A DNA stretch of 64,000 bases from Escherichia coli (GTDB lineage Bacteria; Pseudomonadota; Gammaproteobacteria; Enterobacterales; Enterobacteriaceae): the NCBI RefSeq assembly GCF_003334785.1, contig NZ_QOWV01000001.1. One strand, given 5' to 3'. Below, in pieces: positions 20,225 to 40,936 of the stretch. The position numbers and the translations under genes are program-made. The notes below the pieces were generated by a model that saw nothing but the letters and a program-made list of their open reading frames with translations, was not told where the DNA came from and searched no databases. Positions within the stretch are counted from its first letter, which is position 1. Every line of letters begins with the position of its first letter.

Positions 20225-20440
20225 AGGTGCAACTTAACGTTATCGTGAAATATCCATGATGTTGCAACTTTGTGCAACCATGTTAAATGTGACATGCGTA
20301 GCAAGCTTAAAAATGAATGAAATGTTAATAAAAGAAATCGATATGACAGGGATTAAAAAAATAACTCAGACTTTTTCTCTGCGGCAGTTAACATTTTTGA
20401 AAGGTGCAACCGCAAAAAATGTGAGAGAGTGCAACCTGAT
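20225..20440. promoter_or_regulatory. put control region with PutA operators (GTTGCA-type motifs) and divergent putA/putP promoters
   Basis: ggtgcaac, gttgcaactttgtgcaacc, ggtgcaacc and agtgcaacc motifs in putA-putP intergenic DNA. Confidence 0.8.
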
Positions 20441-20623
20441 GAAAAATAGTGTCGCTGAGCACTAAAATTTAATGTAAATGGTGTGTTAAATCGATTGTGA
20501 ATAACCAGCGCTTCCGGCAGGATACGGTCGCCCTGGTAAAACATAAACTCTGTTACCCCGTTCCGGTGGCAGATATAACGGCAAGTTTCGACATTGCCGA
20601 TAATAATTTTTTGGAGACTTTAG

Positions 20624-22132
<1,509 letters not shown>

Positions 22133-22424
22133 GGGACTTAGCCTGCGGCGGTTTTGTTTGGCTTCAGCAGCGGGTTGCGCTCCCTTAATGTGCCTCGCCA
22201 TATAAATTGAATGGTGCAGGGAGCGCGCAGGGGGCGGCCAATCGCCGCCGCCCCCTGCTGTCCCGGCCTTCGGGGAACGCTTCAGCGATTTTGACGCCAC
22301 CAACACCCGAGCTGTTATTATGTTCCGGGCAAAAAGTTAGATTTGATAATCGCGGATGGACGAAATTGCTTGATACACCCGCTTATCAGTTTTACATGGA
22401 AGCTCTGATGCATTGAGTCTGGAC

Positions 22425-22465
22425 AGTTTTGTCGGCTGGATACGGCGTTTACGCGGCATCCGGCA
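22425..22465. repeat. REP element
   Basis: ggatacggcgtttacgcggcatccggc. Confidence 0.6.
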
Positions 22466-22598
22466 AGAACACATGGTTCTTTGCAAACAATCCCATCTTT
22501 CTACCCTGGAATAATCGTTTATATCCCTTGGCATTACCTCTCTTTGTTTACATTCCAACATCATTTTATAAACATTCCGCTTGTGTTTTTCTTTGCCG

Positions 22599-22620
22599 TA
22601 ATGATAATCGCTATCACTGC
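22599..22620. promoter_or_regulatory. Candidate Fur box upstream of efeU
   Basis: taatgataatcgctatcactgc resembles GATAATGATAATCATTATC. Confidence 0.6.
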
Positions 22621-22674
22621 GATTTACTTTTCTTTGCATAGATTGACTCAGAAAAACGTTTAAGGGTGGGTGGC

Positions 22675-23505
22675 ATGTTTGTTCCGTTTCTCATTATGTT
22701 GCGCGAAGGACTTGAAGCCGCGCTGATTGTCAGTTTGATTGCCAGCTATCTTAAGCGTACCCAGCGAGGCCGATGGATTGGTGTGATGTGGATTGGCGTG
22801 TTGCTTGCCGCTGCGTTGTGCCTGGGCTTGGGTATCTTCATTAACGAAACCACCGGCGAATTTCCGCAAAAAGAACAGGAACTGTTTGAAGGTATCGTGG
22901 CGGTGATCGCCGTGGTGATCCTTACCTGGATGGTTTTCTGGATGCGCAAAGTGTCGCGCAACGTCAAAGTGCAACTGGAACAGGCAGTCGATAGCGCATT
23001 GCAGCGTGGAAATCATCATGGCTGGGCGCTGGTGATGATGGTCTTTTTTGCCGTTGCAAGGGAAGGGCTGGAGTCGGTCTTTTTCCTGCTGGCGGCATTT
23101 CAACAAGATGTCGGGATCTGGCCGCCGCTGGGTGCAATGCTCGGTCTTGCTACTGCCGTGGTGCTAGGCTTCCTGCTCTACTGGGGCGGTATTCGCCTCA
23201 ATCTTGGTGCATTTTTTAAATGGACCAGCCTGTTTATTCTCTTCGTCGCCGCAGGGCTGGCAGCTGGTGCCATTCGCGCATTTCATGAAGCCGGATTGTG
23301 GAACCACTTTCAGGAAATCGCCTTCGATATGAGTGCGGTGCTCTCAACTCACTCGCTGTTTGGCACGCTGATGGAAGGGATTTTTGGCTATCAGGAAGCG
23401 CCGAGCGTCAGCGAAGTCGCCGTCTGGTTTATTTATCTCATCCCGGCGCTGGTGGCATTTGCTCTGCCACCACGCGCAGGGGCGACAGCGTCTCGCTCCG
23501 CGTAA
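22675..23505 (+). CDS. efeU: Ferrous iron permease EfeU (FTR1 family), apparently intact
   Basis: Uninterrupted 276-codon frame from MFVPFLIMLREGLE; two REGLE motifs. Confidence 0.9.
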   Translation: MFVPFLIMLREGLEAALIVSLIASYLKRTQRGRWIGVMWIGVLLAAALCLGLGIFINETTGEFPQKEQELFEGIVAVIAVVILTWMVFWMRKVSRNVKVQLEQAVDSALQRGNHHGWALVMMVFFAVAREGLESVFFLLAAFQQDVGIWPPLGAMLGLATAVVLGFLLYWGGIRLNLGAFFKWTSLFILFVAAGLAAGAIRAFHEAGLWNHFQEIAFDMSAVLSTHSLFGTLMEGIFGYQEAPSVSEVAVWFIYLIPALVAFALPPRAGATASRSA

Positions 23506-23562: not shown

Positions 23563-24690
23563 ATGACCATTAACTTCCGCCGTAACGCATTGCAGTTGAG
23601 CGTGGCTGCGCTGTTTTCTTCTGCTTTTATGGCTAACGCCGCTGATGTGCCGCAGGTCAAAGTGACCGTGACGGATAAGCAGTGCGAACCGATGACCATT
23701 ACGGTTAACGCCGGGAAAACACAGTTCATTATTCAGAACCACAGCCAGAAGGCGCTGGAGTGGGAGATCCTCAAAGGCGTGATGGTGGTGGAAGAGCGGG
23801 AAAATATCGCCCCTGGCTTTAGCCAGAAAATGACGGCGAATTTACAGCCTGGCGAATACGATATGACCTGCGGTCTGCTGACTAACCCGAAAGGGAAGTT
23901 GATCGTCAAAGGTGAGGCAACGGCGGATGCGGCGCAAAGTGATGCGCTGTTAAGTCTTGGTGGTGCAATTACTGCATATAAAGCGTATGTCATGGCGGAA
24001 ACCACGCAGCTGGTGACCGACACCAAAGCCTTTACCGACGCGATTAAAGCAGGCGATATCGAAAAAGCGAAAGCACTGTATGCACCGACGCGCCAGCACT
24101 ATGAGCGTATTGAACCGATTGCTGAACTGTTCTCCGATCTGGATGGCAGCATTGACGCCCGTGAAGATGATTACGAGCAAAAAGCCGCCGACCCAAAATT
24201 CACTGGTTTCCACCGTCTGGAAAAAGCATTGTTTGGCGACAACACCACCAAAGGGATGGATCAGTACGCTGAGCAGCTTTATACCGATGTGGTCGATTTG
24301 CAAAAACGCATCAGTGAACTGGCTTTCCCACCTTCAAAAGTGGTCGGCGGCGCAGCCGGACTGATTGAGGAAGTGGCAGCCAGCAAAATTAGCGGTGAAG
24401 AAGATCGCTACAGCCACACCGATCTGTGGGATTTCCAGGCTAACGTTGAAGGCTCGCAGAAAATTGTCGATTTGCTGCGTCCACAACTGCAAAAAGCCAA
24501 CCCGGAACTGCTGGCAAAAGTCGATGCCAACTTTAAAAAGGTCGATACCATTCTGGCGAAATACCGTACTAAAGACGGTTTTGAAACCTACGACAAATTG
24601 ACCGATGCCGACCGGAATGCACTGAAAGGACCGATTACTGCGCTGGCGGAAGATCTGGCGCAACTTCGCGGTGTGCTGGGACTGGATTAA
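23563..24690 (+). CDS. efeO: Periplasmic iron-binding protein EfeO (cupredoxin plus M75 peptidase-like)
   Basis: 375-aa ORF with signal peptide. Confidence 0.93.
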
Positions 24691-24695
24691 GCGTT

Positions 24696-25967
24696 ATGCA
24701 GTATAAAGATGAAAACGGCGTGAATGAACCGTCACGCCGACGTTTACTGAAAGTGATAGGTGCACTGGCGCTGGCGGGAAGTTGTCCGGTCGCTCATGCA
24801 CAAAAAACGCAAAGTGCGCCGGGTACGCTTTCACCGGATGCTCGCAATGAGAAACAGCCGTTTTATGGTGAGCATCAGGCAGGGATCCTGACGCCACAAC
24901 AGGCCGCAATGATGCTGGTGGCGTTTGATGTGCTTGCCAGCGATAAAGCCGATCTTGAGCGGTTGTTTCGCTTGTTGACTCAGCGTTTTGCTTTTCTGAC
25001 TCAGGGCGGAGCAGCACCAGAAACGCCAAATCCGCGCCTGCCACCACTCGATTCCGGCATTCTTGGCGGCTACATTGCGCCCGATAATCTCACCATCACG
25101 TTATCGGTGGGTCACTCATTGTTTGATGAGCGCTTTGGCCTTGCGCCACAGATGCCAAAAAAGCTGCAGAAGATGACGCGTTTCCCCAACGACTCGCTGG
25201 ATGCGGCGTTATGTCATGGTGATGTGTTGCTACAGATTTGCGCCAACACCCAGGACACGGTTATCCATGCGCTGCGCGATATCATCAAACACACGCCGGA
25301 TTTGCTCAGTGTGCGCTGGAAGCGGGAAGGGTTTATTTCCGATCACGCGGCGCGTAGTAAAGGCAAAGAGACGCCGATTAATTTGCTGGGTTTCAAAGAC
25401 GGCACTGCCAATCCCGATAGCCAGAATGATAAGTTGATGCAAAAAGTGGTGTGGGTAACGGCAGATCAGCAGGAGCCTGCGTGGACAATCGGTGGCAGCT
25501 ATCAGGCAGTACGCTTGATTCAGTTTCGAGTGGAATTTTGGGACAGAACGCCGCTGAAAGAACAGCAGACGATTTTTGGCCGTGATAAGCAAACCGGTGC
25601 GCCGCTGGGAATGCAGCATGAGCATGATGTGCCTGATTACGCCAGCGACCCGGAAGGGAAGGTGATCGCGCTGGACAGCCATATCCGGCTGGCGAATCCC
25701 CGCACGGCGGAGAGTGAGTCCAGCCTGATGCTGCGTCGTGGCTACAGTTATTCACTGGGCGTCACCAACTCCGGGCAACTGGATATGGGGTTGCTGTTTG
25801 TCTGCTACCAACACGATCTGGAAAAAGGCTTCCTGACAGTACAAAAAAGGCTCAATGGCGAAGCGCTGGAGGAATACGTTAAACCTATCGGCGGCGGTTA
25901 TTTTTTTGCGCTGCCGGGGGTGAAGGACGCGAACGATTATTTCGGAAGCGCGTTATTGCGGGTTTAA
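24696..25967 (+). CDS. efeB: Dye-decolorising (DyP-type) haem peroxidase EfeB, Tat-exported
   Basis: 423 aa; SRRRLLK twin-arginine signal. Confidence 0.93.
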
Positions 25968-26163: not shown

Positions 26164-26311
26164 TTTCCAGTAGAAACTAATGTCACTGAAATGGTGTTTT
26201 ATAGTTAAATATAAGTAAATATATTGTTGCAATAAATGCGAGTTCTGTTGTACTTATTAAGTAGCAGCGGAAGTTCCCGGCAGTGATAGTCAGTCACTAT
26301 GGAGATCGCGG

Positions 26312-27394: not shown

Positions 27395-27420
27395 GCCCGG
27401 GCGAACCGGGCTTTGTTTTG
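27395..27420. terminator. Bidirectional terminator between phoH and pgaD
   Basis: gcccgggcgaaccgggc hairpin followed by T-run. Confidence 0.7.
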
Positions 27421-27425
27421 GGTGT

Positions 27426-27839
27426 TTATGCCCGGACTAGCGCTTTTTCTGAAACAACCATTTTTATTTGCCCCTGGCTGGTGAAGTGTACGCTCATCCT
27501 GTGGCTTTTTTGTAGTTGCTGATAGAGCTCATCAGGTATTGCTAAGCTCTCTGCATATTCTTGCGGCGTATATTGGTAGGCTGCATGATGCTGCTGTTTT
27601 TGAAAACGCAGCTTATTGTACAGCGCCCAGACAATTAACACGACGGCATTCGCCACTGCCAGCAAAAAATAGAACTGAAGTCGGCTTCTGGCCTCGCTTT
27701 GCCAGTAATAACCCGTCAGCAGATCCATGGCGAATAAGAATATGAACAACGCAAATAATGTCCACAAGATGGTTGTGGCAACATAATCAACCAGTAAACG
27801 TACTGGTGATTGTCGGGTCGTAATAATTAAATTGTTCAT
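27426..27839 (-). CDS. pgaD: PGA synthase subunit PgaD
   Basis: 137-aa membrane ORF. Confidence 0.9.
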
Positions 27840-27840
27840 A

Positions 27841-29166
27841 TTAACCTCTCAGAATCCCGCGATCGGGACTTACCCAACGGGCGCGTTGCTTTTTAGGCAT
27901 CAACATGACTCGTGTAAATGATACCAATGTCGTTGCCAGGCTCAGCATCCAGAAAATAACCGGGAACCAAATAATCCAGAAAAGCGATGAAGTCAGATTA
28001 TGCTCATAGCGATTCTCGATCATCAGGCTGACAATAAATTGCAGTAAACATAACGTACACAATAATATTCCGGCAGTATGTGTCGCAGCGATATGTGTCA
28101 ATTCAATATTTAACGGTACACCGGCAAGTTGGACTGCGTAAATAATGAAACCGACCAGGCAGGTGAAGGCCCATATTGTCGTCAGGCAGTATTCAAAAAA
28201 CAGCGGCCACATTCGAAAGTTTTCTTTGCGCCACAACCTTGTCATATTTTTGAGGAATACTTCTGCACCGCCCTGAGCCCAGCGCAGGCGCTGTTTCCAC
28301 AGCCCTTTTAACGTTTCAGGCATTAATATCCAGCACAGTGCCCGTGGCTCGTAAAAAATCGTCCACTGATTCAACTGCAGCTTCCAGCTAATATCAATAT
28401 CTTCGGTGATCATATCGTCACTCCAGTAACCCACTTCTGCCAGGGCGCTGCGACGAAATGCGGCAATAACACCGGAAACGGTAAATACGTTTCCATAGAT
28501 ACGCTGGGTTCGCTTGATCAAACCAATAATTGAGGAATACTCGCCAACCTGAATTTTACCCACCAGGGTAGAACGTGTTCGAATACGAGGATTACCGGTT
28601 ACGGCACCCACACGCGGGTTGTACAACATCGGTTCCACAATATATGCCGCCGCATCGCGGTCTAATAACGCATCGCCATCAATGCACACCAGATATTCAC
28701 TTTTCGCCGCGGCAGCTCCGGTTTTAAGCGCAATGGCTTTCCCCTGGTTTTGCGCCAGATGAATGACCCGCAAATGGGGAATTTGTGCAGCCATGCGATC
28801 CAGGATGGCACGGGTTTTATCTGTTGAACCGTCATTTACGGCAATAACTTCAATGTTCTCATAACGCTGTGCTAAAGCGGCGTGTATGGTTTCCTCAACG
28901 TTTTTCTCCTCATTAAAACAGGGAATGATAATGGAGATAGACGGATTATCTTTCAACTGGGGAGCTGGTGCGTTTTCTCCCCACGGCCAGTGGCGTTCAC
29001 GATAGACCCAGAAATAGACGCCGCCAACAATCCACATAATGGACATAAAAAACGGCCAGAAGAAAACGAACCTCATCATCAGTTCACCAGAGTGAAAGTA
29101 CGCTACGCATAGGGGTATGCATAACACCAGACATAATATAAAAAACGATACGATGCGATTAATCAT
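27841..29166 (-). CDS. pgaC: Poly-beta-1,6-N-acetylglucosamine synthase PgaC (GT2)
   Basis: 441 aa. Confidence 0.93.
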
Positions 29167-31177
29167 TTTTCGGATACCAGGCTGTTGAAAACTCAGGACG
29201 AATAAGGTCTATTTCAGGTTGGTTATGCAGAAAATTGTCGGGATAATAACCATAGTTTTTCATTCCATTCAGTTGTAATAGGCTCATCCAGTGAGCGAGT
29301 TGTTGCGAAGAAATAGCCTGATGCTGACCATTTTTCTGCCAGTTTTGTGCCTGTAATTCTAAAATAGATTTGTCTTTAGCCTGAGGGATGTTTTTAATTT
29401 GATTGGTCAATTGTATTAACCATTGGTCAGCCGATTTTTCTGCGACACCTTCCAGATAAGGCATAGCCATAATAGCGGTCCAGTCATAGCTTTTTAGGAA
29501 ATCAGCATAATTCTGTGCAAACCAGGCTTCACTTTCAGGTTGTATTACCGGAAGTGCAAAAATATTTCGTGCAGTTTTAATATGTGGACCGCGAATGGCT
29601 TTTACGCGCGCACTAAGTTCTAAAGTGAAGTCAGTTAACGCACGACTTTTAAAGCGGGCCCACTGTTTAAATTGCTCCGGGTTTTGTCGAATTTCGCTCA
29701 GACTCCCGCTAAAGCCTGCTTGCTGATAAGCCGTGATAGCCGGTGCACTGGCATCTTCATAATCTGAAAGCAAAGCATCATCGTGGAACAATATGCCATC
29801 AAAAGCAGCATGTCCGGCAAGATCTTCATATAACATGCCAACTTGTGCTCTGACTCTGTCATCGAAAGGAGAGAGACGGTGATATTGTTCAGGATGAATT
29901 TGTGCTTTTTTCTCCCCTGTTGGTAAGTATTTTACTCGCGTTAATGTGGGATCTAAATCCCAGCTTAATACCGGCATCCACGCATAGATGTTTACACCTG
30001 AGCGGGTACGTAATTGCCAGGCAACCCGACTAAAAATATCTGCTTTCATTGGTAGCAAACGATTTGGAAACCAGACCTCTTTGACCAGCCCATCACCATC
30101 GGGATCAGCAAATGCCTGCAAATACACGGTTGATATTTGCATATCTTTCACCCGCTGAATTAGCACATCAATATTGCGATCCATTTGCTGGAGGTTTTCG
30201 TCATAAACGTAATCAAGATCGATATGCATTATCCGTTGTGGTGATTTTTCCTGTACGGTAATAATTTGCTGGGCAAACTCTTTTAATGAGGGATTATTGG
30301 CGATTAATACCCGCGGAATGGAATCCAATTGCGACGCATTTGCCAAACCTGATTCAAGGGTGAAGAACATGTCATAACCGAGTTTTTTTAATTCCTCTAT
30401 CGCTATGCCATTCGCTTCGCCATAAGGCCAAACAAAAACGTGTGGATTTACCTCAACCTTTGTACGCAGGTATTCCGTCATTTTTACAGCATCCAGACGA
30501 ATTCTTTCCCGGTATTCTGCTGCGGTTTCATACCGTGCGTGGTCAGTAAAATATGCACGATTTACATATACAGGCAATAAGCTGCCGGTGGCATTAGCCT
30601 GAATACCGTAGTGAGAATTCCATGTATGAGAAGCGAGCTCAACGAGCCGGGAACGCGCAACTTCTCGCACTTGTTGCCACGTGGCAAAATATTCTCGATC
30701 GACCAACTCATCGCCAAATTTTACTTGTTTATCCGCTGGCGTATCGACCCAACTGCCGACGGGGGCCCATACAGCAGGCCACTGGAAGGCCTGAAGAATT
30801 GGGAAGACGCGGGTATAAAAACTCTGGTAGCCGTCATCAAAAGTCAGCACTACAGCTTTTTCCGGTAGCGGTTTTCCTCCTCGATGTGCTTCACGAATTT
30901 GAGCAATACTGACCGGTTGATAACCGTTCTCGCGCAGCCAGGCAAATTGTTCACGCAGTGCTGATGTCCGCACTGACATAAAACGCTGGTCGGCAGCTTC
31001 GTCTTCAACGTTATGCCATGAAATCGCTACAAAACCATTATGCGGCCACGGTTGCTCGGCGAGTAAAGATTCGCGATCCTGTGGCGGTATAAATGATGTT
31101 CTTGACTGGCTAATGCACGCGGTGAGCATAATTATACTCACCAGCATCAGGAGATATTTATTTCCATTACGTAACAT
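29159..31177 (-). CDS. pgaB: PGA N-deacetylase / export lipoprotein PgaB
   Basis: 672 aa, lipobox LTAC; overlaps pgaC by 8 bp. Confidence 0.93.
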
Positions 31178-31185
31178 ATTTATCC

Positions 31186-33609
31186 TTAAAATCTGAATGT
31201 CATATCGAATTCAACGTATAAGTTGTGTTCTCTGTCACCGTCATAAGGTCGTTTTTCCCAGCGTAGCGTTGCGCCAGCATCAATCACGTCATTCCAACTA
31301 ATGCGTTGCCCGTAGCCGAGTTGGGTGACGACATCCGTGCCATAATGTTTTTGCCAGGAGGCACCAACACCTGCGCTGAATATTTGCTCCCAGCTATTTT
31401 CATAGCTTCGCCATAACAAATGGCTTGCCTCAAATGCCGGAACAATATCGAACGTTTTTATAGGGTTGTAGTATGGGGTATCGTGTTCTGTATTTTGTTC
31501 GTAATACAGACTGGGTAGGAAATCGACAATCAAATATGGTGAAGACCAGATGCGTTCCTGACCCTCAAGTGAGACTTCATGACGCTGGTTACTGTCGGAA
31601 AAATCAGTGAAAGCCCAGGAGACACCGTACTTACGCCGCTCATTTTGATACCAGCGAACATAAGCCTGAGCACTGTTGCCTGTAACACCATTTTTCATTG
31701 CCCGTAATGGAACGCGGTGAGAGAGGCGTTCCAGTTGCGAACCAATACGCCAGTTATCATTAAAATCATACCAGCCAGACAGGCGCGCGCCGGGTTTATG
31801 CTCATGATTGAAAACGCGTTCAGCGTACTCTGCCTCGAGCCAGATATTACGTGACCGCCACTCAACACCCGCAAGCCAGTCGCGAACAATCCCTTTTCCT
31901 TCGCTAAATTGTCCATCGGCATAACCGAATCCAGCAAAACCGCGCCAGTTATCCTTCAGCGGTGGTGAATAAACGATGGTGGTTAAGTCGACATCATGTT
32001 TACCACTATCCGGGCCTTCGGCATCAATTCCTGTTGAGCCAGCGATACGAAGCTCTGCAAGATTATGTACATCAACCGCACGTTTTAATCGTACAACGCC
32101 GGGATCTTGCGGTTCACGTTCGACAACATCGTGCGTTAAGACAGCTGCCTGCTGCCATTCTTGTAACGTTAATGCTGTCCAGGCTTGTTCAACCTCCAGA
32201 TTAATATTACGTGGCTCGATCACTTCTGCTTTTTTTAATTCATTTTCTGCTGCACGAGGCCAACCGCGGGCTTGTAACACACTCGCGTAATCAATGCGCA
32301 GTCCCTGATTTCCTGGTGCGTTATAAGCAAGCTCTCTGGCTGTCATTTCAGCCTGAGGAAGATCATTACTATATTTTGCTACGGTTGAGAGAAACGAATG
32401 CCCCTGTAACCAGGTATCATTCGGGATGCTCGTAGGCGTGCCCATTAACCGAAGGAAAGGCGGCGAAGTATTAATGGTATGTTGGGTGACAGTTAGCGCG
32501 CCCGGATAATTTTCACTCTCCAGGTGGCTGTAAAAGAGATCCGCAAGTTCTTCATCGGATAAATCCGGGGCAATGGTCTCCTTGTGATAAAAGAGCTCGG
32601 TCATTATTGACTGTGCTTTTTTCGGCTGATGATCTTTGAGATAAGCCGATGCAACCCAATATTGCCCCCAGGGCGGAATAATTTGCCCCGTCTTTTTTAA
32701 TCGCTGATAGTGAGAAATAACGTCTTTATAACGATCGCGAGTTAATAACGCGCCAAGATGATCAACCTGAATACGCTGGTACTGGGCAGTGCGGTCTGGG
32801 TTATCGTGCCACAGAATTTCTAATGCAGCGTATTGGGCGAGGGCGCGATCGGCAATGGCATAACGTTCACTTTCACTGCGCGTAGGCATAAACGACAGTC
32901 TGACCAGTTCGGCATGAATATCAGCGCGAATATCTGGCGTTAAATTGGCATCGTCAATCGCGGCAGCAAGTTGATTATTACGTAATGCCTGCACGTATTC
33001 TGTGGGATATTGTTGCGTAGATGCATTTTCAGGTAATGACTCTGTCATCGCCCGTAATTCATCCTGATGACGCCCCGCCAGTTTATAGATATAGGCTTCT
33101 GCGAGTAAATTGGCTTTGTCCGGTGCTCCAGAGTTAAGCTGCTTAAGTTTAACCAGCGCAGTATCATAGTGACCAGCATCTGCCAGGGTTAAAATTTGTC
33201 CCCGTTGATAATCCTTATTTTGCGGCTCCAGAGAGAGCGCCTTTTGCCACAGTGTAAGCGAGTTTTGCCATTGTTGCAGGTTACGATAAGCGACGGCGAC
33301 AGCTGCATAACCACGCGCTGGTAATTGCTGATGACGGTAGCGGTTGTAAACGGTAATAACCTGTTTATCTTGCCCGGCCCATAAGGCAATCTGTAACCAG
33401 TCAGCAATTTGGTTATTGCTGAGTGCTGATTTTAGTGCAAACCATGACAAAGCTGGCTGAGTATTACCCTTGCGAGCTTCAATAATCAATGCATCATAGG
33501 CGTTATTAACAGCACTCTTCGCCGCGGGACTCGCTGCTAAAAATGCGGCAGTAAGAAGTTTCAAAGCCCATTTGGTTTTCGGGCACCTTTTTCTGCTACT
33601 TGAATACAT
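31186..33609 (-). CDS. pgaA: PGA outer-membrane export porin PgaA (TPR plus beta-barrel)
   Basis: 807 aa. Confidence 0.93.
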   Translation of the reverse strand: MYSSSRKRCPKTKWALKLLTAAFLAASPAAKSAVNNAYDALIIEARKGNTQPALSWFALKSALSNNQIADWLQIALWAGQDKQVITVYNRYRHQQLPARGYAAVAVAYRNLQQWQNSLTLWQKALSLEPQNKDYQRGQILTLADAGHYDTALVKLKQLNSGAPDKANLLAEAYIYKLAGRHQDELRAMTESLPENASTQQYPTEYVQALRNNQLAAAIDDANLTPDIRADIHAELVRLSFMPTRSESERYAIADRALAQYAALEILWHDNPDRTAQYQRIQVDHLGALLTRDRYKDVISHYQRLKKTGQIIPPWGQYWVASAYLKDHQPKKAQSIMTELFYHKETIAPDLSDEELADLFYSHLESENYPGALTVTQHTINTSPPFLRLMGTPTSIPNDTWLQGHSFLSTVAKYSNDLPQAEMTARELAYNAPGNQGLRIDYASVLQARGWPRAAENELKKAEVIEPRNINLEVEQAWTALTLQEWQQAAVLTHDVVEREPQDPGVVRLKRAVDVHNLAELRIAGSTGIDAEGPDSGKHDVDLTTIVYSPPLKDNWRGFAGFGYADGQFSEGKGIVRDWLAGVEWRSRNIWLEAEYAERVFNHEHKPGARLSGWYDFNDNWRIGSQLERLSHRVPLRAMKNGVTGNSAQAYVRWYQNERRKYGVSWAFTDFSDSNQRHEVSLEGQERIWSSPYLIVDFLPSLYYEQNTEHDTPYYNPIKTFDIVPAFEASHLLWRSYENSWEQIFSAGVGASWQKHYGTDVVTQLGYGQRISWNDVIDAGATLRWEKRPYDGDREHNLYVEFDMTFRF

Positions 33610-33850
33610 CCTGTATTACTCCATGTATTGCCAAAATCTCTCTCTGTATCTAATTACAGGTAACTGAAAAGAAAGATATTTTTGCACCTCATAATCCGTT
33701 ATTAAACGCGGAAGAGAGACGTGAATTGTTGATGATGAGAAGAAGAAATGATGAGCAGAGTGTCCATATAAAATCCTTTTCTCGCCCGAAAATCCATTCC
33801 AATGATGAGGATCTTCAGGAATACGGCATAAATCCCAATGCCTTTTTCAA
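33610..33850 (-). promoter_or_regulatory. pgaA long 5' leader with multiple GGA (CsrA-type) motifs
   Basis: AT-rich untranslated leader; GGA motifs including one overlapping the SD (aGGAgtaatacaGGATG). Confidence 0.65.
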
Positions 33851-34195
33851 AATAAATTAGGATTAAAATAATTAAATCAGTAAATTCCGATGCATGATTT
33901 CGGATTTTTCGAAAGTCCTGATGAAAGGCTGCGCTACGGCACTCACGGATTTAATTGTTATTCCTAATGTATCTATGAATTAATGTTTTATAAGGATTTT
34001 CTATAACCATTTATAAGTATTTTCAAGCCTGGCTTGTTGCAAACAATGTATAAAGCACTTAGGCAATAATAATTACATTCAGCAACTATCATCATCGGTA
34101 TTGTTTGTGGGCGGAATTTCATATTGACAACAGTACAGTTCTTATATCTATTAATAATAGAAAGGGATCTACAACCTACAGATTGGTGTAGCTTT

Positions 34196-35554
34196 ATGGA
34201 AAAAGACTATTTGAGAATGAGTAGTACTGTATTAGTGAGCTTATTGTTTGGGCTTGCTTTGGTTTTGGTGAATAGTTGGTTTAATCAGCCAGGCGTTGAG
34301 GAAGTTGTTCCACGATCAACCTATCTGATGGTAATGATTGCTTTATTTTTTATCGATACTGTTGCATTTATTTTTATGCAGTTGTATTTCATTTATGACC
34401 GTAGGCAATTTTCAAACTGTGTACTTAGTTTGGCTTTTCTGAGTTGTTTGATTTACTTTGTTATAACCGTCATTATCATTCAGCAAATTATTGAGGAGCG
34501 TTTGACAAGCAGTGTTGTCCAAAATGACATTGCAATCTATTATTTGTTTCGTCAGATGAGTTTGTGCATATTAATATTTCTGGCATTGGTGAATAAAGTT
34601 AGTGAAAACACAAAACAGCGCAATTTATTTTCCAAAAAAATGACTTTGTGCATAAGTTTGTTTTTTGTTTTTGGGGGGCCGATAGTTGCTCACATACTTT
34701 CTAGTCATTATGAGAGCTACAATTTACACATTGCCGAGTTAACCAATGAAAATGGTCAGGTGGTTTGGAAAGCCTCATATGTTACCATAATGATTTTCAT
34801 GTGGTTAACCTTGCTTTCGGTTAATCTATACTTTAATGGTTTACGCTATGATATCTGGAATGGAGTGACGGTGATTGCTTTTTGTGCCGTACTGTACAAT
34901 ATCTCTCTGTTATTTATGAGCAGGTATAGCGTGTCCACTTGGTATATTAGTCGCACTATTGAAGTAGTCAGTAAGTTAACCGTTATGGTAATATTTATGT
35001 GCCATATATTCAGTGCGCTACGAGTAACAAAGAACATTGCACATCGCGATCCCTTAACCAATATATTTAACAGAAATTATTTTTTTAATGAACTGACAGT
35101 TCAATCAGCATCAGCCCAAAAAACGCCTTATTGCGTCATGATTATGGATATCGACCACTTCAAAAAAGTCAACGACACCTGGGGGCATCCGGTTGGCGAT
35201 CAGGTGATAAAAACAGTGGTGAATATCATTGGGAAAAGCATACGACCAGATGACCTTTTAGCGCGCGTCGGCGGCGAAGAGTTTGGCGTCTTGCTGACGG
35301 ACATCGATACTGAACGTGCGAAAGCTTTAGCGGAAAGGATTCGGGAAAATGTTGAGCGTTTAACTGGCGATAATCCTGAATACGCTATACCACAAAAAGT
35401 GACGATTAGTATTGGCGCTGTTGTGACTCAGGAAAATGCGTTAAACCCAAATGAGATCTATCGACTGGCTGATAACGCACTTTACGAGGCGAAAGAGACC
35501 GGGCGTAATAAGGTGGTTGTGAGGGATGTGGTGAATTTTTGTGAGTCACCATAA
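34196..35554 (+). CDS. dgcT: Diguanylate cyclase DgcT (YcdT), membrane-anchored GGDEF
   Basis: 452 aa from MEKDYLRMSS; GGEEF motif. Confidence 0.92.
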   Translation: MEKDYLRMSSTVLVSLLFGLALVLVNSWFNQPGVEEVVPRSTYLMVMIALFFIDTVAFIFMQLYFIYDRRQFSNCVLSLAFLSCLIYFVITVIIIQQIIEERLTSSVVQNDIAIYYLFRQMSLCILIFLALVNKVSENTKQRNLFSKKMTLCISLFFVFGGPIVAHILSSHYESYNLHIAELTNENGQVVWKASYVTIMIFMWLTLLSVNLYFNGLRYDIWNGVTVIAFCAVLYNISLLFMSRYSVSTWYISRTIEVVSKLTVMVIFMCHIFSALRVTKNIAHRDPLTNIFNRNYFFNELTVQSASAQKTPYCVMIMDIDHFKKVNDTWGHPVGDQVIKTVVNIIGKSIRPDDLLARVGGEEFGVLLTDIDTERAKALAERIRENVERLTGDNPEYAIPQKVTISIGAVVTQENALNPNEIYRLADNALYEAKETGRNKVVVRDVVNFCESP

Positions 35555-35594
35555 AGCGGCATTTTGATCCTACCCACGTAATATGGACACAGGC

Positions 35595-36461
35595 CTAAGC
35601 GAGGTTCTTGTTTTCAAATTGTTCCGGACTGAGGCCGCCACACCAACTGTGCCGCCGCCACCGATTGTAATCACATTCGATATAATTAAACACCGTTGCC
35701 CGCATTATTTCCCGGCTGATAAAGTGTTCTCCATGGATACATTCCACTTTCAGCGAATGAAAGAAGCTTTCCACGCAGGCATTATCGTAGCAGCAACCTT
35801 TTGCGCTCATACTTCCACGCAGATTATGCCGCTTCAGTTGCGCCTGATAATCTGCTGAACAGTACTGGCCTCCACGGTCCGTGTGAACGATAACGTTCCG
35901 GGGCCTCTTACGCCGCCACAGCGCCATCTGCAGGGCATCGCAGGCCAGTTGCGCCGTCATGCGTGGCGACATTGACCAGCCAATAACGGCACGTGACCAC
36001 AGGTCAATGACCACTGCCAGATACAGCCAGCCTTCATCTGTACGTAAGTACGTGATGTCTCCTGCCCACTTCTGGTTCGGGCCACTGGCGTAAAAATCCT
36101 GCTCCAACAGATTTTCTGACACAGGCAGGCCGTGTGCGCGGTAGCTGACCGGGCTGAACTTCCGGGAGGCCTTTGCCCTCAGTCCCTGACGGCGCAGGCT
36201 TGCCGCCACGGTTTTTACGTTAAAGGGGTAACCCTGAGCACGCAGTTCATCCGTCAGGCGTGGGGCACCGTAACGCTGTTTTGACCGGGTAAAAGCCGCG
36301 AGGACAACGCTGTCGCAGTGTTGGCGGAACTGCTGACGCGTGCTTATCCTTGTCCGCCGCTGACACCACGTATACCAGCCGCTGCGGGCCACCCGGAGCA
36401 CGCGGCACATTGCTTTGATGCTGAACTCAGCCTGATGTTTTTCAATAAAGACATACTTCAT
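35595..36461 (-). CDS. insF: IS3 transposase OrfB (InsF)
   Basis: 288 aa, DDE integrase-like. Confidence 0.93.
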
Positions 36462-36757
36462 TTCAGGCGCTTCGCGAAGTATGTCGCGGCCTTTTGGAGG
36501 ATAGCCAGCTCTTCATCCCGTTCTGCCAGCTGGCGTTTGAGACGTGCAATCTCGGTAGACATCTCCAGTTCACGTTCAGAAGACGTCTGCTGATTTTGCT
36601 GTTTACTGCGCCAGTTGTAGAGTTGTGATTCATACAGGCTGAGTTCACGGGCTGCGGCAGTAACACCGATGCGTTCAGCAAGCTTCAGGGCTTCACTGCG
36701 AAATTCAGGCGAATGCTGTTTACGGGGTTTTTTACTGGTTGATACTGTTTTTGTCAT
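36458..36757 (-). CDS. insE: IS3 transposase OrfA (InsE)
   Basis: 99 aa from [18 protein letters not shown]; overlaps insF in -1 frame arrangement. Confidence 0.92.
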
Positions 36758-36822
36758 GTGAGTCACCTCTGACTGAGAGTTTACTCACTTAGCCGCGTGT
36801 CCACTATTGCTGGGTAAGATCA

Positions 36823-37166
36823 GTGCCTGGCACACGCGTTTGATGGAAGACGGCGTTCAGGCAATGCGCGATTATCTTGCCGGACTGGATATCGCTTCGC
36901 CAGAGCATCAGGTTCTGATGAACGTAACAGCAAAAAGCGAGGTCGCTCCGTCAATTATCAAAGAAAATCTCTCATTACACTTAACTCATACGGTGAAATG
37001 GACTGAATCTCTCGATACATTTCTGAATATGCCAACCCCGGTAGCTTTCCTTGAAATAAGTAATAAGCCCTATTTGGGGAATATGTTAAATGATTTTGCT
37101 GGCGTGGATCAGCAACGAGTTATGCATTGTCGTAAAGCATTTAGTGATGCAAAGGTATTCAAATGA
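36823..37166 (+). pseudogene. ymdE: ymdE, C-terminal fragment of a FabD-like malonyl-CoA:ACP transacylase, truncated by IS3
   Basis: ORF-track frame starts inside the IS3 terminal repeat; no plausible own start. Confidence 0.75.
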
Positions 37167-38149
37167 TTCCTGATTATTTAACTTTTATTCGCTTTCAGGA
37201 TAAACGAAATCTGATATACATTTATGCTATTGGACTTATTCTGATAGGCTTTTATTGGAAGAATGCAGGGTTTACTTTTCCATCAGAGGATATTGGTGTA
37301 GTTAGTGGGATTCTGGCTCTGGTGCTGTATAATTTTATTTTTGATCTCAAGGCGTACTGGGCTTATAAATGCGTCACGAAGAATATCGATTTTTCGTGGT
37401 TTAAGAAAAAGCAGAACCACAAAATAGAATTATTTCTTACACAACCTCTGGTGGCAGGATTTCTGTCGTTAATCATGTTGAGTGCAATGAGTTGGGGGCT
37501 ATACCAGCTTCTACCCTCGTTATATGCGCTGTTCCTGATTTCGTTACTTGGGCCGTTGGTCATCTTTCTGCTGTTTCGGATGATCCGCACCAGTTATGTC
37601 AAGCAGGTCGCTATTTCAGTAGCGAAAAAAGTAAAATATAAAAGTCTGACTCGCTATGTGCTGCTTTCGGTGTGCATCTCAACGGTTGTTAACCTGCTTA
37701 CTATCAGCCCGTTGCGTAACAGTGATTCTTTTGTGACAGAGGGGCAGTGGTTAACGTTTAAATCGATAATTGCATTGCTCATTCTTTGTGGCGTAGTGTT
37801 GGCGATTAATCTGTTTTTTCTGCGCTTCTCCAAGCGGTACGCTTTTCTGGGCAGGCTTTTTTTGCAGGAAATCGATCTGTTTTTCTCCAGTGAAAATGCG
37901 TTGTCGACCTTTTTTGCCAAGCCGCTTTGGCTTCGGTTATTCATATTGCTGGTTATTGAAGTGATGTGGATTACGCTGGTGTCGGTATTGGCAACGCTTG
38001 TAGAATGGCGGATTTGGTTTGAAGCCTATTTTTTACTCTGCTATGTACCGTGCTTAATTTACTATTTTTTCTATTGTCGATTCCTCTGGCATAACGATTT
38101 TATGATGGCATGTGACATGTATTTCCGTTGGGGGCATTTTAATAAGTGA
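37163..38149 (+). CDS. ycdU: Uncharacterised polytopic inner-membrane protein YcdU
   Basis: 328-aa AT-rich ORF with multiple hydrophobic segments. Confidence 0.85.
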
Positions 38150-38280
38150 GGAAGTGATAGGAAGTGACCAGATAATACATATATGTTCTGTACTCTCTTG
38201 CGCATTTTGATTGTTGACTGAGTAACCAGACAGTTGATGTGCACGATTTCCCCTCGCCCTAACAGACGTGGGCGGGGGCA

Positions 38281-38903
38281 CCCGGTGTGTGCAATATACG
38301 AAAAAAAAGCCCGTACTTTCGTACGAGCTCTTCTTTAAATATGGCGGTGAGGGGGGGATTGACTCGCTTCGCTCGCCCTGCGGGCAGCCCGCTCACTGCG
38401 TTCACGGTCTGTCCAACTGGCTGTCGCCAGTTGTCGAACCCCGGTCGGGGCTTCTCATCCCCCCGGTGTGTGCAATATACGAAAAAAAAGCCCGTACTTT
38501 CGTACGAGCTCTTCTTTAAATATGGCGGTGAGGGGGGGATTGACTCGCTTCGCTCGCCCTGCGGGCAGCCCGCTCACTGCGTTCACGGTCTGTCCAACTG
38601 GCTGTCGCCAGTTGTCGAACCCCGGTCGGGGCTTCTCATCCCCCCGGTGTGTGCAATATACGAAAAAAAAGCCCGTACTTTCGTACGAGCTCTTCTTTAA
38701 ATATGGCGGTGAGGGGGGGATTGACTCGCTTCGCTCGCCCTGCGGGCAGCCCGCTCACTGCGTTCACGGTCTGTCCAACTGGCTGTCGCCAGTTGTCGAA
38801 CCCCGGTCGGGGCTTCTCATCCCCCCGGTGTGTGCAATATACGAAAAAAAAGCCCGTACTTTCGTACGAGCTCTTCTTTAAATATGGCGGTGAGGGGGGG
38901 ATT
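38281..38903. repeat. tRNA-linked tandem repeat array: four 181-bp direct repeats, each carrying the serX terminator and the last 19 nt of tRNA-Ser
   Basis: Unit starts at about 38284, 38465, 38646, 38827 (period 181); shared tggcggtgagggggggatt core; near-identical copies. Confidence 0.9.
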
Positions 38904-38972
38904 CGAACCCCCGATACGTTGCCGTATACACACTTTCCAGGCGTGCTCCTTCAGCCACTCGGACACCTCACC
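38885..38972 (-). tRNA. serX: tRNA-Ser (88 nt, long variable arm)
   Basis: Acceptor 5' GGTGAGGTG / 3' CACCGCCA, T-arm GGTTCGAATCC; followed on minus strand by hairpin plus T-run. Confidence 0.9.
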
Positions 38973-40198: not shown

Positions 40199-40936
40199 AT
40201 GTATCCCGTCGACCTTCATATGCATACCGTTGCCAGCACACATGCATATAGCACATTAAGTGATTACATTGCCCAGGCCAAACAAAAGGGCATTAAACTT
40301 TTTGCGATCACCGATCATGGCCCGGATATGGAAGATGCGCCGCATCACTGGCACTTCATTAACATGCGTATCTGGCCGCGAGTGGTTGATGGGGTAGGGA
40401 TCCTGCGCGGCATCGAAGCTAACATTAAAAATGTTGATGGTGAAATTGACTGCAGCGGTAAAATGTTTGACTCGCTGGATCTAATTATTGCCGGTTTTCA
40501 TGAGCCGGTTTTTGCGCCACATGACAAAGCGACCAATACACAAGCGATGATCGCCACTATCGCCAGCGGCAATGTGCATATAATAAGCCATCCCGGAAAT
40601 CCCAAATATGAAATAGATGTGAAAGCCGTTGCTGAAGCAGCCGCGAAACATCAGGTGGCGCTGGAAATCAATAATTCCTCATTTTTACACTCACGTAAGG
40701 GCAGTGAAGACAAATGTCGTGAGGTAGCCGCAGCGGTACGTGATGCTGGAGGTTGGGTGGCATTAGGCTCGGATTCTCACACCGCGTTTACCATGGGGGA
40801 ATTTGAAGAGTGTCTTAAAATCCTCGACGCGGTAGATTTTCCGCCAGAGCGCATTTTGAATGTTTCTCCGCGCCGCTTACTGAACTTCCTTGAATCTCGC
40901 GGTATGGCACCGATTGCGGAATTTGCAGACCTTTAA
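40199..40936 (+). CDS. ycdX: PHP-family zinc phosphoesterase YcdX
   Basis: 245 aa, [14 protein letters not shown]-terminus. Confidence 0.9.

Follow-up and report, generated by a model that had tools for sequence, protein, structure and literature searches.

The window analysed here, a 64,000-nucleotide stretch of Escherichia coli DNA, carries an intact efeU gene, as the initial annotation had read from the letters: an uninterrupted frame of 276 codons opens with MFVPFL and is followed by efeO and then by efeB. The source of the window is very probably a natural E. coli strain, very closely related to K-12 yet distinct from it, in which efeUOB would have kept its ancestral, uninterrupted form. 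The loss of one G from the GG of codon 36, by which efeU became a pseudogene, would then be derived and limited to the laboratory lineage of K-12. The gene and the dinucleotide in question are located as follows.

22675..23505, plus strand: efeU, 276 codons plus stop, the Ftr1-type inner-membrane iron permease of EfeUOB (open reading frame listing and NCBIfam models).
22779..22780, plus strand: GG dinucleotide in codon 36 (GGT, Gly36), a single G in K-12 (alignment).

A single open frame spans 22666..23505 on the plus strand, and the ATG at 22675 is the annotated-type start that yields the 276-aa product. The K-12 reference for this locus was the MG1655 pseudogene b4490 (efeU_1/efeU_2; NC_000913.3 1081356..1082185), which is 830 nt long against 831 nt for the window copy. 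In a base-by-base alignment with 22675..23505, all 830 nt of b4490 match the window, and the sole difference is one additional G in the window at 22779/22780. The surrounding sequence reads ...GGATTGGTGTG... in the window and ...GGATT-GTGTG... in MG1655, or, at codon 36, ATT-GGT-GTG versus ATT-GTG-TG. The extra G holds the frame open, whereas frame 0 of the MG1655 gene terminates as ...RGRWIV followed by a stop after 36 residues, the remaining EfeU sequence lying in frame +2. The initial annotation had stated that efeU carries a single-base frameshift in K-12 and had proposed alignment to MG1655 as the test of that statement; the two loci are not identical, and the frameshift stands.

In an NCBIfam profile search the whole protein encoded by this frame scores 331.2 bits against the NF041756 equivalog model (cut-off 255) and 351.7 bits against TIGR00145 (cut-off 303.8), the latter match running end to end. 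The two REGLE motifs attributed to EfeU are indeed present, at residues 10-14 and 129-133, and the literature describes EfeU as a multi-pass inner-membrane permease of the Ftr1 family with two REGLE metal-binding motifs. Against the seven-helix inner-membrane topology of the family, a crude Kyte-Doolittle scan delineates six clear segments, at approximately residues 1-24, 32-60, 68-94, 146-173, 177-204 and 242-266. The first REGLE sits within a hydrophobic segment, and the other REGLE-bearing stretch (approximately 117-140) is of weaker hydropathy and falls under the threshold of the scan. The REXXE motifs of yeast Ftr1p and of bacterial Ftr1-family permeases (TIGR00145) are also found in the window EfeU, for which hydropathy likewise predicts a multi-pass membrane topology, although the partner of Ftr1p is the multicopper oxidase Fet3p and those of EfeU are EfeO and EfeB. 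A PDB sequence search with EfeU found no relative with a solved structure. Alignment with the O157 gene product, which had been suggested as a further check, reveals that the O157:H7 protein (WP_000497942.1) is identical to the window EfeU at 276 of 276 positions; the same accession is the annotated EfeU in strains LR-64-2 and NCTC9080.

The remaining genes of the operon are complete as well.

23563..24690, plus strand: efeO, periplasmic component, 375 aa (NF007697, 772 bits; NF041757, 479 bits).
24696..25967, plus strand: efeB, Tat-exported DyP-type haem peroxidase/deferrochelatase, 423 aa, with an RRRLLK twin-arginine signal (TIGR01412, 618 bits; cut-off 428).

EfeU, EfeO and EfeB each score above the curated cut-off of their equivalog model, and the three genes, which share one strand and are separated by gaps of 57 nt (efeU-efeO) and 5 nt (efeO-efeB), are therefore classed as an operon. 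Neither efeO nor efeB shows a single nucleotide difference from MG1655; compared with O157:H7, EfeO is identical at 374 of 375 residues and EfeB at 418 of 423. The EfeUOB (YcdNOB) systems of O157:H7 and Nissle 1917 (Grosse 2006; Cao 2007) have the same order, efeU-efeO-efeB, between putP and phoH, and no functional difference from the window is visible. The putP-efeU intergenic region, on the other hand, is shorter in the window than in O157:H7, where an extra hypothetical gene is present, and just ~160 nt upstream of efeU can be aligned between the two (96% identity). In O157:H7 strain PV15-279 this extra gene encodes a 447-aa hypothetical protein (1391..2734 of the PV15-279 locus, against 22133..22674 of the window), and it is absent from both the window and MG1655.

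Two candidate regulatory sites lie directly upstream of efeU.

22597..22615, plus strand: Fur-box-like site CGTAATGATAATCGCTATC, agreeing with the Fur consensus at 15 of 19 positions, 60 nt upstream of the efeU ATG.
22623..22637, minus strand: CpxR-box-like direct repeat, reverse complement GCAAAGAAAAGTAAA, with one mismatch to GTAAA-N5-GTAAA; a consensus match only.

A candidate Fur box had been placed at 22599..22620 in the initial annotation, and it overlaps the site found by our pattern scan, in which CGTAATGATAATCGCTATC agrees with the 19-bp consensus GATAATGATAATCATTATC. This putative site is a real match to the consensus: it is the single best one in the 64-kb window, where shuffled sequences lead to an expectation of 0.1 sites at four mismatches or fewer. 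The CpxR-like repeat lies directly downstream of it, and repeats of this kind with at most one mismatch number just 7 in the window, counting both strands. A simple sigma-70 scan detected no -35/-10 pair upstream of efeU. The candidate Fur box has the same sequence in MG1655, as does the entire 540-nt region upstream of efeU, which shows 0 differences. The literature names Fe-Fur, and CpxR at higher pH, as repressors of efeUOB, and CpxR regulation of the operon is mentioned in PMC3852070, citing Cao 2007. Upstream of efeU, the window carries putative boxes for Fur and CpxR such as published work describes in efeUOB regulation.

According to PMC2808357 (citing Grosse 2006), the MG1655 transporter is non-functional owing to the efeU frameshift, and PMC4361602 refers to EfeUOB as cryptic in K-12 but expressed by strains outside it. 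EfeUOB function is reported for serotype O157:H7, to judge from the Cao 2007 title given in PMC4746246 and PMC3852070. Given its 100% identity to the O157:H7 protein and the literature (PMC3852070, PMC2808357), the window EfeU would be expected to mediate Fe(II) uptake at low pH, and on published grounds transport activity and regulation of the same kind may be anticipated in the source strain. It is nonetheless conceivable that efeU is intact and that EfeUOB does not work as an iron importer here, either because it is silenced or because its main role is another one, such as the extraction of haem iron by EfeB. Alternative proposals do feature in the literature, where PMC3852070 brings up haem deferrochelation by EfeB and the idea that EfeO oxidises the iron, which is then transported as Fe3+. 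We consider this improbable for the source strain, however, since none of the three genes is truncated and each exceeds its equivalog cut-off, EfeU is identical to the protein of a serotype with reported function, the regulatory region is conserved and nothing in the sequence points to such a scenario.

The distribution of the two efeU alleles was surveyed in the 5426 complete E. coli genomes of RefSeq with short queries in which every 28-mer seed crosses the indel. Of these genomes, 5418 contain the efeU locus. The intact allele (41-mer) has an exact match in at least 3929 of them, O157:H7 and O145:H28 among them, versus 367 for the K-12 deletion allele (40-mer); the ~1100 genomes matching neither query presumably carry nearby SNPs. 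Sixty evenly sampled entries of the 367 are mostly named K-12 laboratory derivatives (among them MG1655, W3110, DH10B, MC4100, TOP10, XL1-Blue, JM83, Origami, NBRC 3301 and laboratory transconjugants), together with a few O16:H48 strains and a few unfamiliar isolate names, and all 60 are compatible with K-12 stock. From these counts it follows that an intact efeU is the rule, being the majority and normal state in E. coli, and, taking the sampled entries into account, that the deletion is a marker of the K-12 lineage.

The relationship of the window to K-12 extends well beyond this one base. The window is colinear with MG1655 1058682..1122680 throughout its 64 kb, from which it differs by 17 SNPs and two one-base indels, that is ~2.7 SNPs per 10 kb at 99.97% identity. 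One of the indels is the efeU G and the other lies in an A9/A8 run at 62544. K-12 laboratory derivatives would be essentially identical over a 64-kb span, with differences far below 2.7 SNPs per 10 kb. The window has neither the efeU deletion of the K-12 lineage nor the close agreement with MG1655, across tens of kilobases, that a member of that lineage would show. Several of the substitutions fall in genes, such as yccE (5617, 6379), rutE (12197) and putA (17364, 17460), among others. At 34219, codon 8 of dgcT is ATG in the window and ATT in MG1655 (Ile8Met in DgcT), and LR-64-2 has the window allele. The A9 run (62536..62544; A8 in MG1655) is located in the bssS-dinI intergenic region, where the additional A may be genuine or may stem from the assembly.

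Over 25 kb, the complete genome that matches the window best is LR-64-2, isolated from human faeces in Ecuador. In the 46.9 kb compared, this strain shares the window allele at 5617, 6379, 12197, 17364, 17460, 22780 (the efeU G), 34219, 39161 and 45033, and has the MG1655 allele at 26243, 29263, 38438, 38478 and 40714. The alleles held in common with LR-64-2, at least nine in number, argue that the non-K-12 alleles of the window are natural polymorphisms and not random laboratory mutations. Three of these last five, window-private alleles were searched as 40-mers in the 5426 complete genomes: the window allele at 26243 was found in one genome (NCTC9080), that at 29263 in 17 unrelated ones and that at 40714 in none. 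At these three SNPs, the source differs from all the genomes searched, in none of which the three alleles ever occur together. NCTC9080 itself was discarded as the source strain, as it lacks the pga-dgcT-IS3 segment. The 64 kb at hand suggest that the source is a close, phylogroup-A-type relative of K-12, both its phylogroup and its identity as a strain being deduced from this stretch.

These data bear directly on the two origins that had been put forward for the intact frame, namely that the source is not a standard K-12 derivative or that it is a K-12 strain with a restored efeU. The former is upheld by the 17 SNPs, the two indels and the alleles shared with LR-64-2. The latter would have the efeU frameshift reverted, or repaired by recombination or engineering, in a K-12 derivative that had thereby regained low-pH Fe(II) uptake. 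It could draw on how closely the window follows MG1655, at 99.97% identity and in unbroken colinear order, IS3 and a 181-bp repeat array included, and on the absence of any base difference from MG1655 in efeO, efeB and the promoter region. A reversion at a single site would nevertheless leave 17 SNPs and one further indel scattered along the whole 64 kb, and eight of those SNPs, plus the efeU G, are alleles of the wild strain LR-64-2. The intact allele is, moreover, simply the majority allele, and deletion-bearing genomes need not be invoked in order to explain it. The number of differences and the nine alleles common to LR-64-2 thus imply that the source is neither a K-12 derivative nor a revertant, and a restored K-12 efeU is effectively excluded.

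The apparent tension between an intact efeU and the K-12-like hallmarks noted elsewhere in the window does not hold up either, for the window differs from MG1655 and the IS3 insertion counted among these hallmarks is shared by a large fraction of E. coli.

35565..36822, minus strand: IS3 copy between dgcT and a truncated ymdE, colinear with MG1655 IS3D (1094245..1095502).

This insertion is present, as stated in the initial annotation, but it is not diagnostic. A 2.1-kb query across both junctions (35300..37400; at least 80% coverage) retrieved IS3 with both junctions from ~2182 of the 5426 complete genomes (~40%), including numerous wild strains from humans, animals and food. The insertion therefore provides no argument for K-12, and it is an old, widespread and lineage-wide feature. 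It truncates ymdE (annotated as an ACP S-malonyltransferase), the N-terminus of which is missing, and in several genomes the short dgcT-ymdE region harbors further insertion sequences (IS1, IS2, IS5 or ISVsa5). NCTC9080 has nothing of the pgaABCD-dgcT-IS3-ymdE-ycdU segment that separates phoH from serX in the window, and carries a DUF2726 gene in its place (20231..22289 of its locus, against 27400..38900 of the window), revealing that the phoH-serX interval is variable among E. coli strains.

That sequencing or assembly wrongly introduced the extra G into a K-12-like genome whose efeU is truly frameshifted is scarcely credible: single-base indels are common in assemblies, and a second one-base length difference does occur in the A8/A9 homopolymer at 62544, yet the efeU site is a GG dinucleotide and not a long homopolymer, its GG allele is the same as in at least 3929 independent complete genomes and the surrounding SNP pattern is that of a non-K-12 strain.

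With a natural, non-K-12 relative that has an intact operon as by far the best account of the window, annotation should list its efeUOB operon as presumably functional and should not class the stretch as K-12. Codon 36 of efeU, with GG in the one and a single G in the other, offers a one-base marker to tell very close wild relatives from K-12 derivatives. The significance of these results beyond annotation hygiene is small, given that the K-12 frameshift and the function of EfeUOB outside K-12 have been in the literature since 2006-2007; the presence of an intact efeUOB in non-K-12 E. coli is already published (Grosse 2006; Cao 2007, as related in PMC2808357, PMC4361602 and PMC3852070). More tentatively, the source could be among the closest wild relatives of K-12 and might then be used to sort out lineage-specific K-12 lesions. 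If so, it would lend support to an origin of the efeU deletion inside the K-12 stock, perhaps while this was being kept in laboratories, as opposed to inheritance from a wild ancestor.

A further difference between the window, MG1655 and LR-64-2 concerns a 181-bp tandem repeat located between ycdU and serX (38281..38903; 3.4 copies), the last copy of which enters the 3' end of the tRNA-Ser(GGA) gene (38885..38972, minus strand). The copies are mutually 100% identical in the window, whereas in MG1655 one copy carries two differences (38438 and 38478), and the LR-64-2 alignment breaks inside the array in a manner consistent with one unit fewer. On the basis of these two observations, the array seems to gain or lose units, and to become homogenised, even among strains as close as these.
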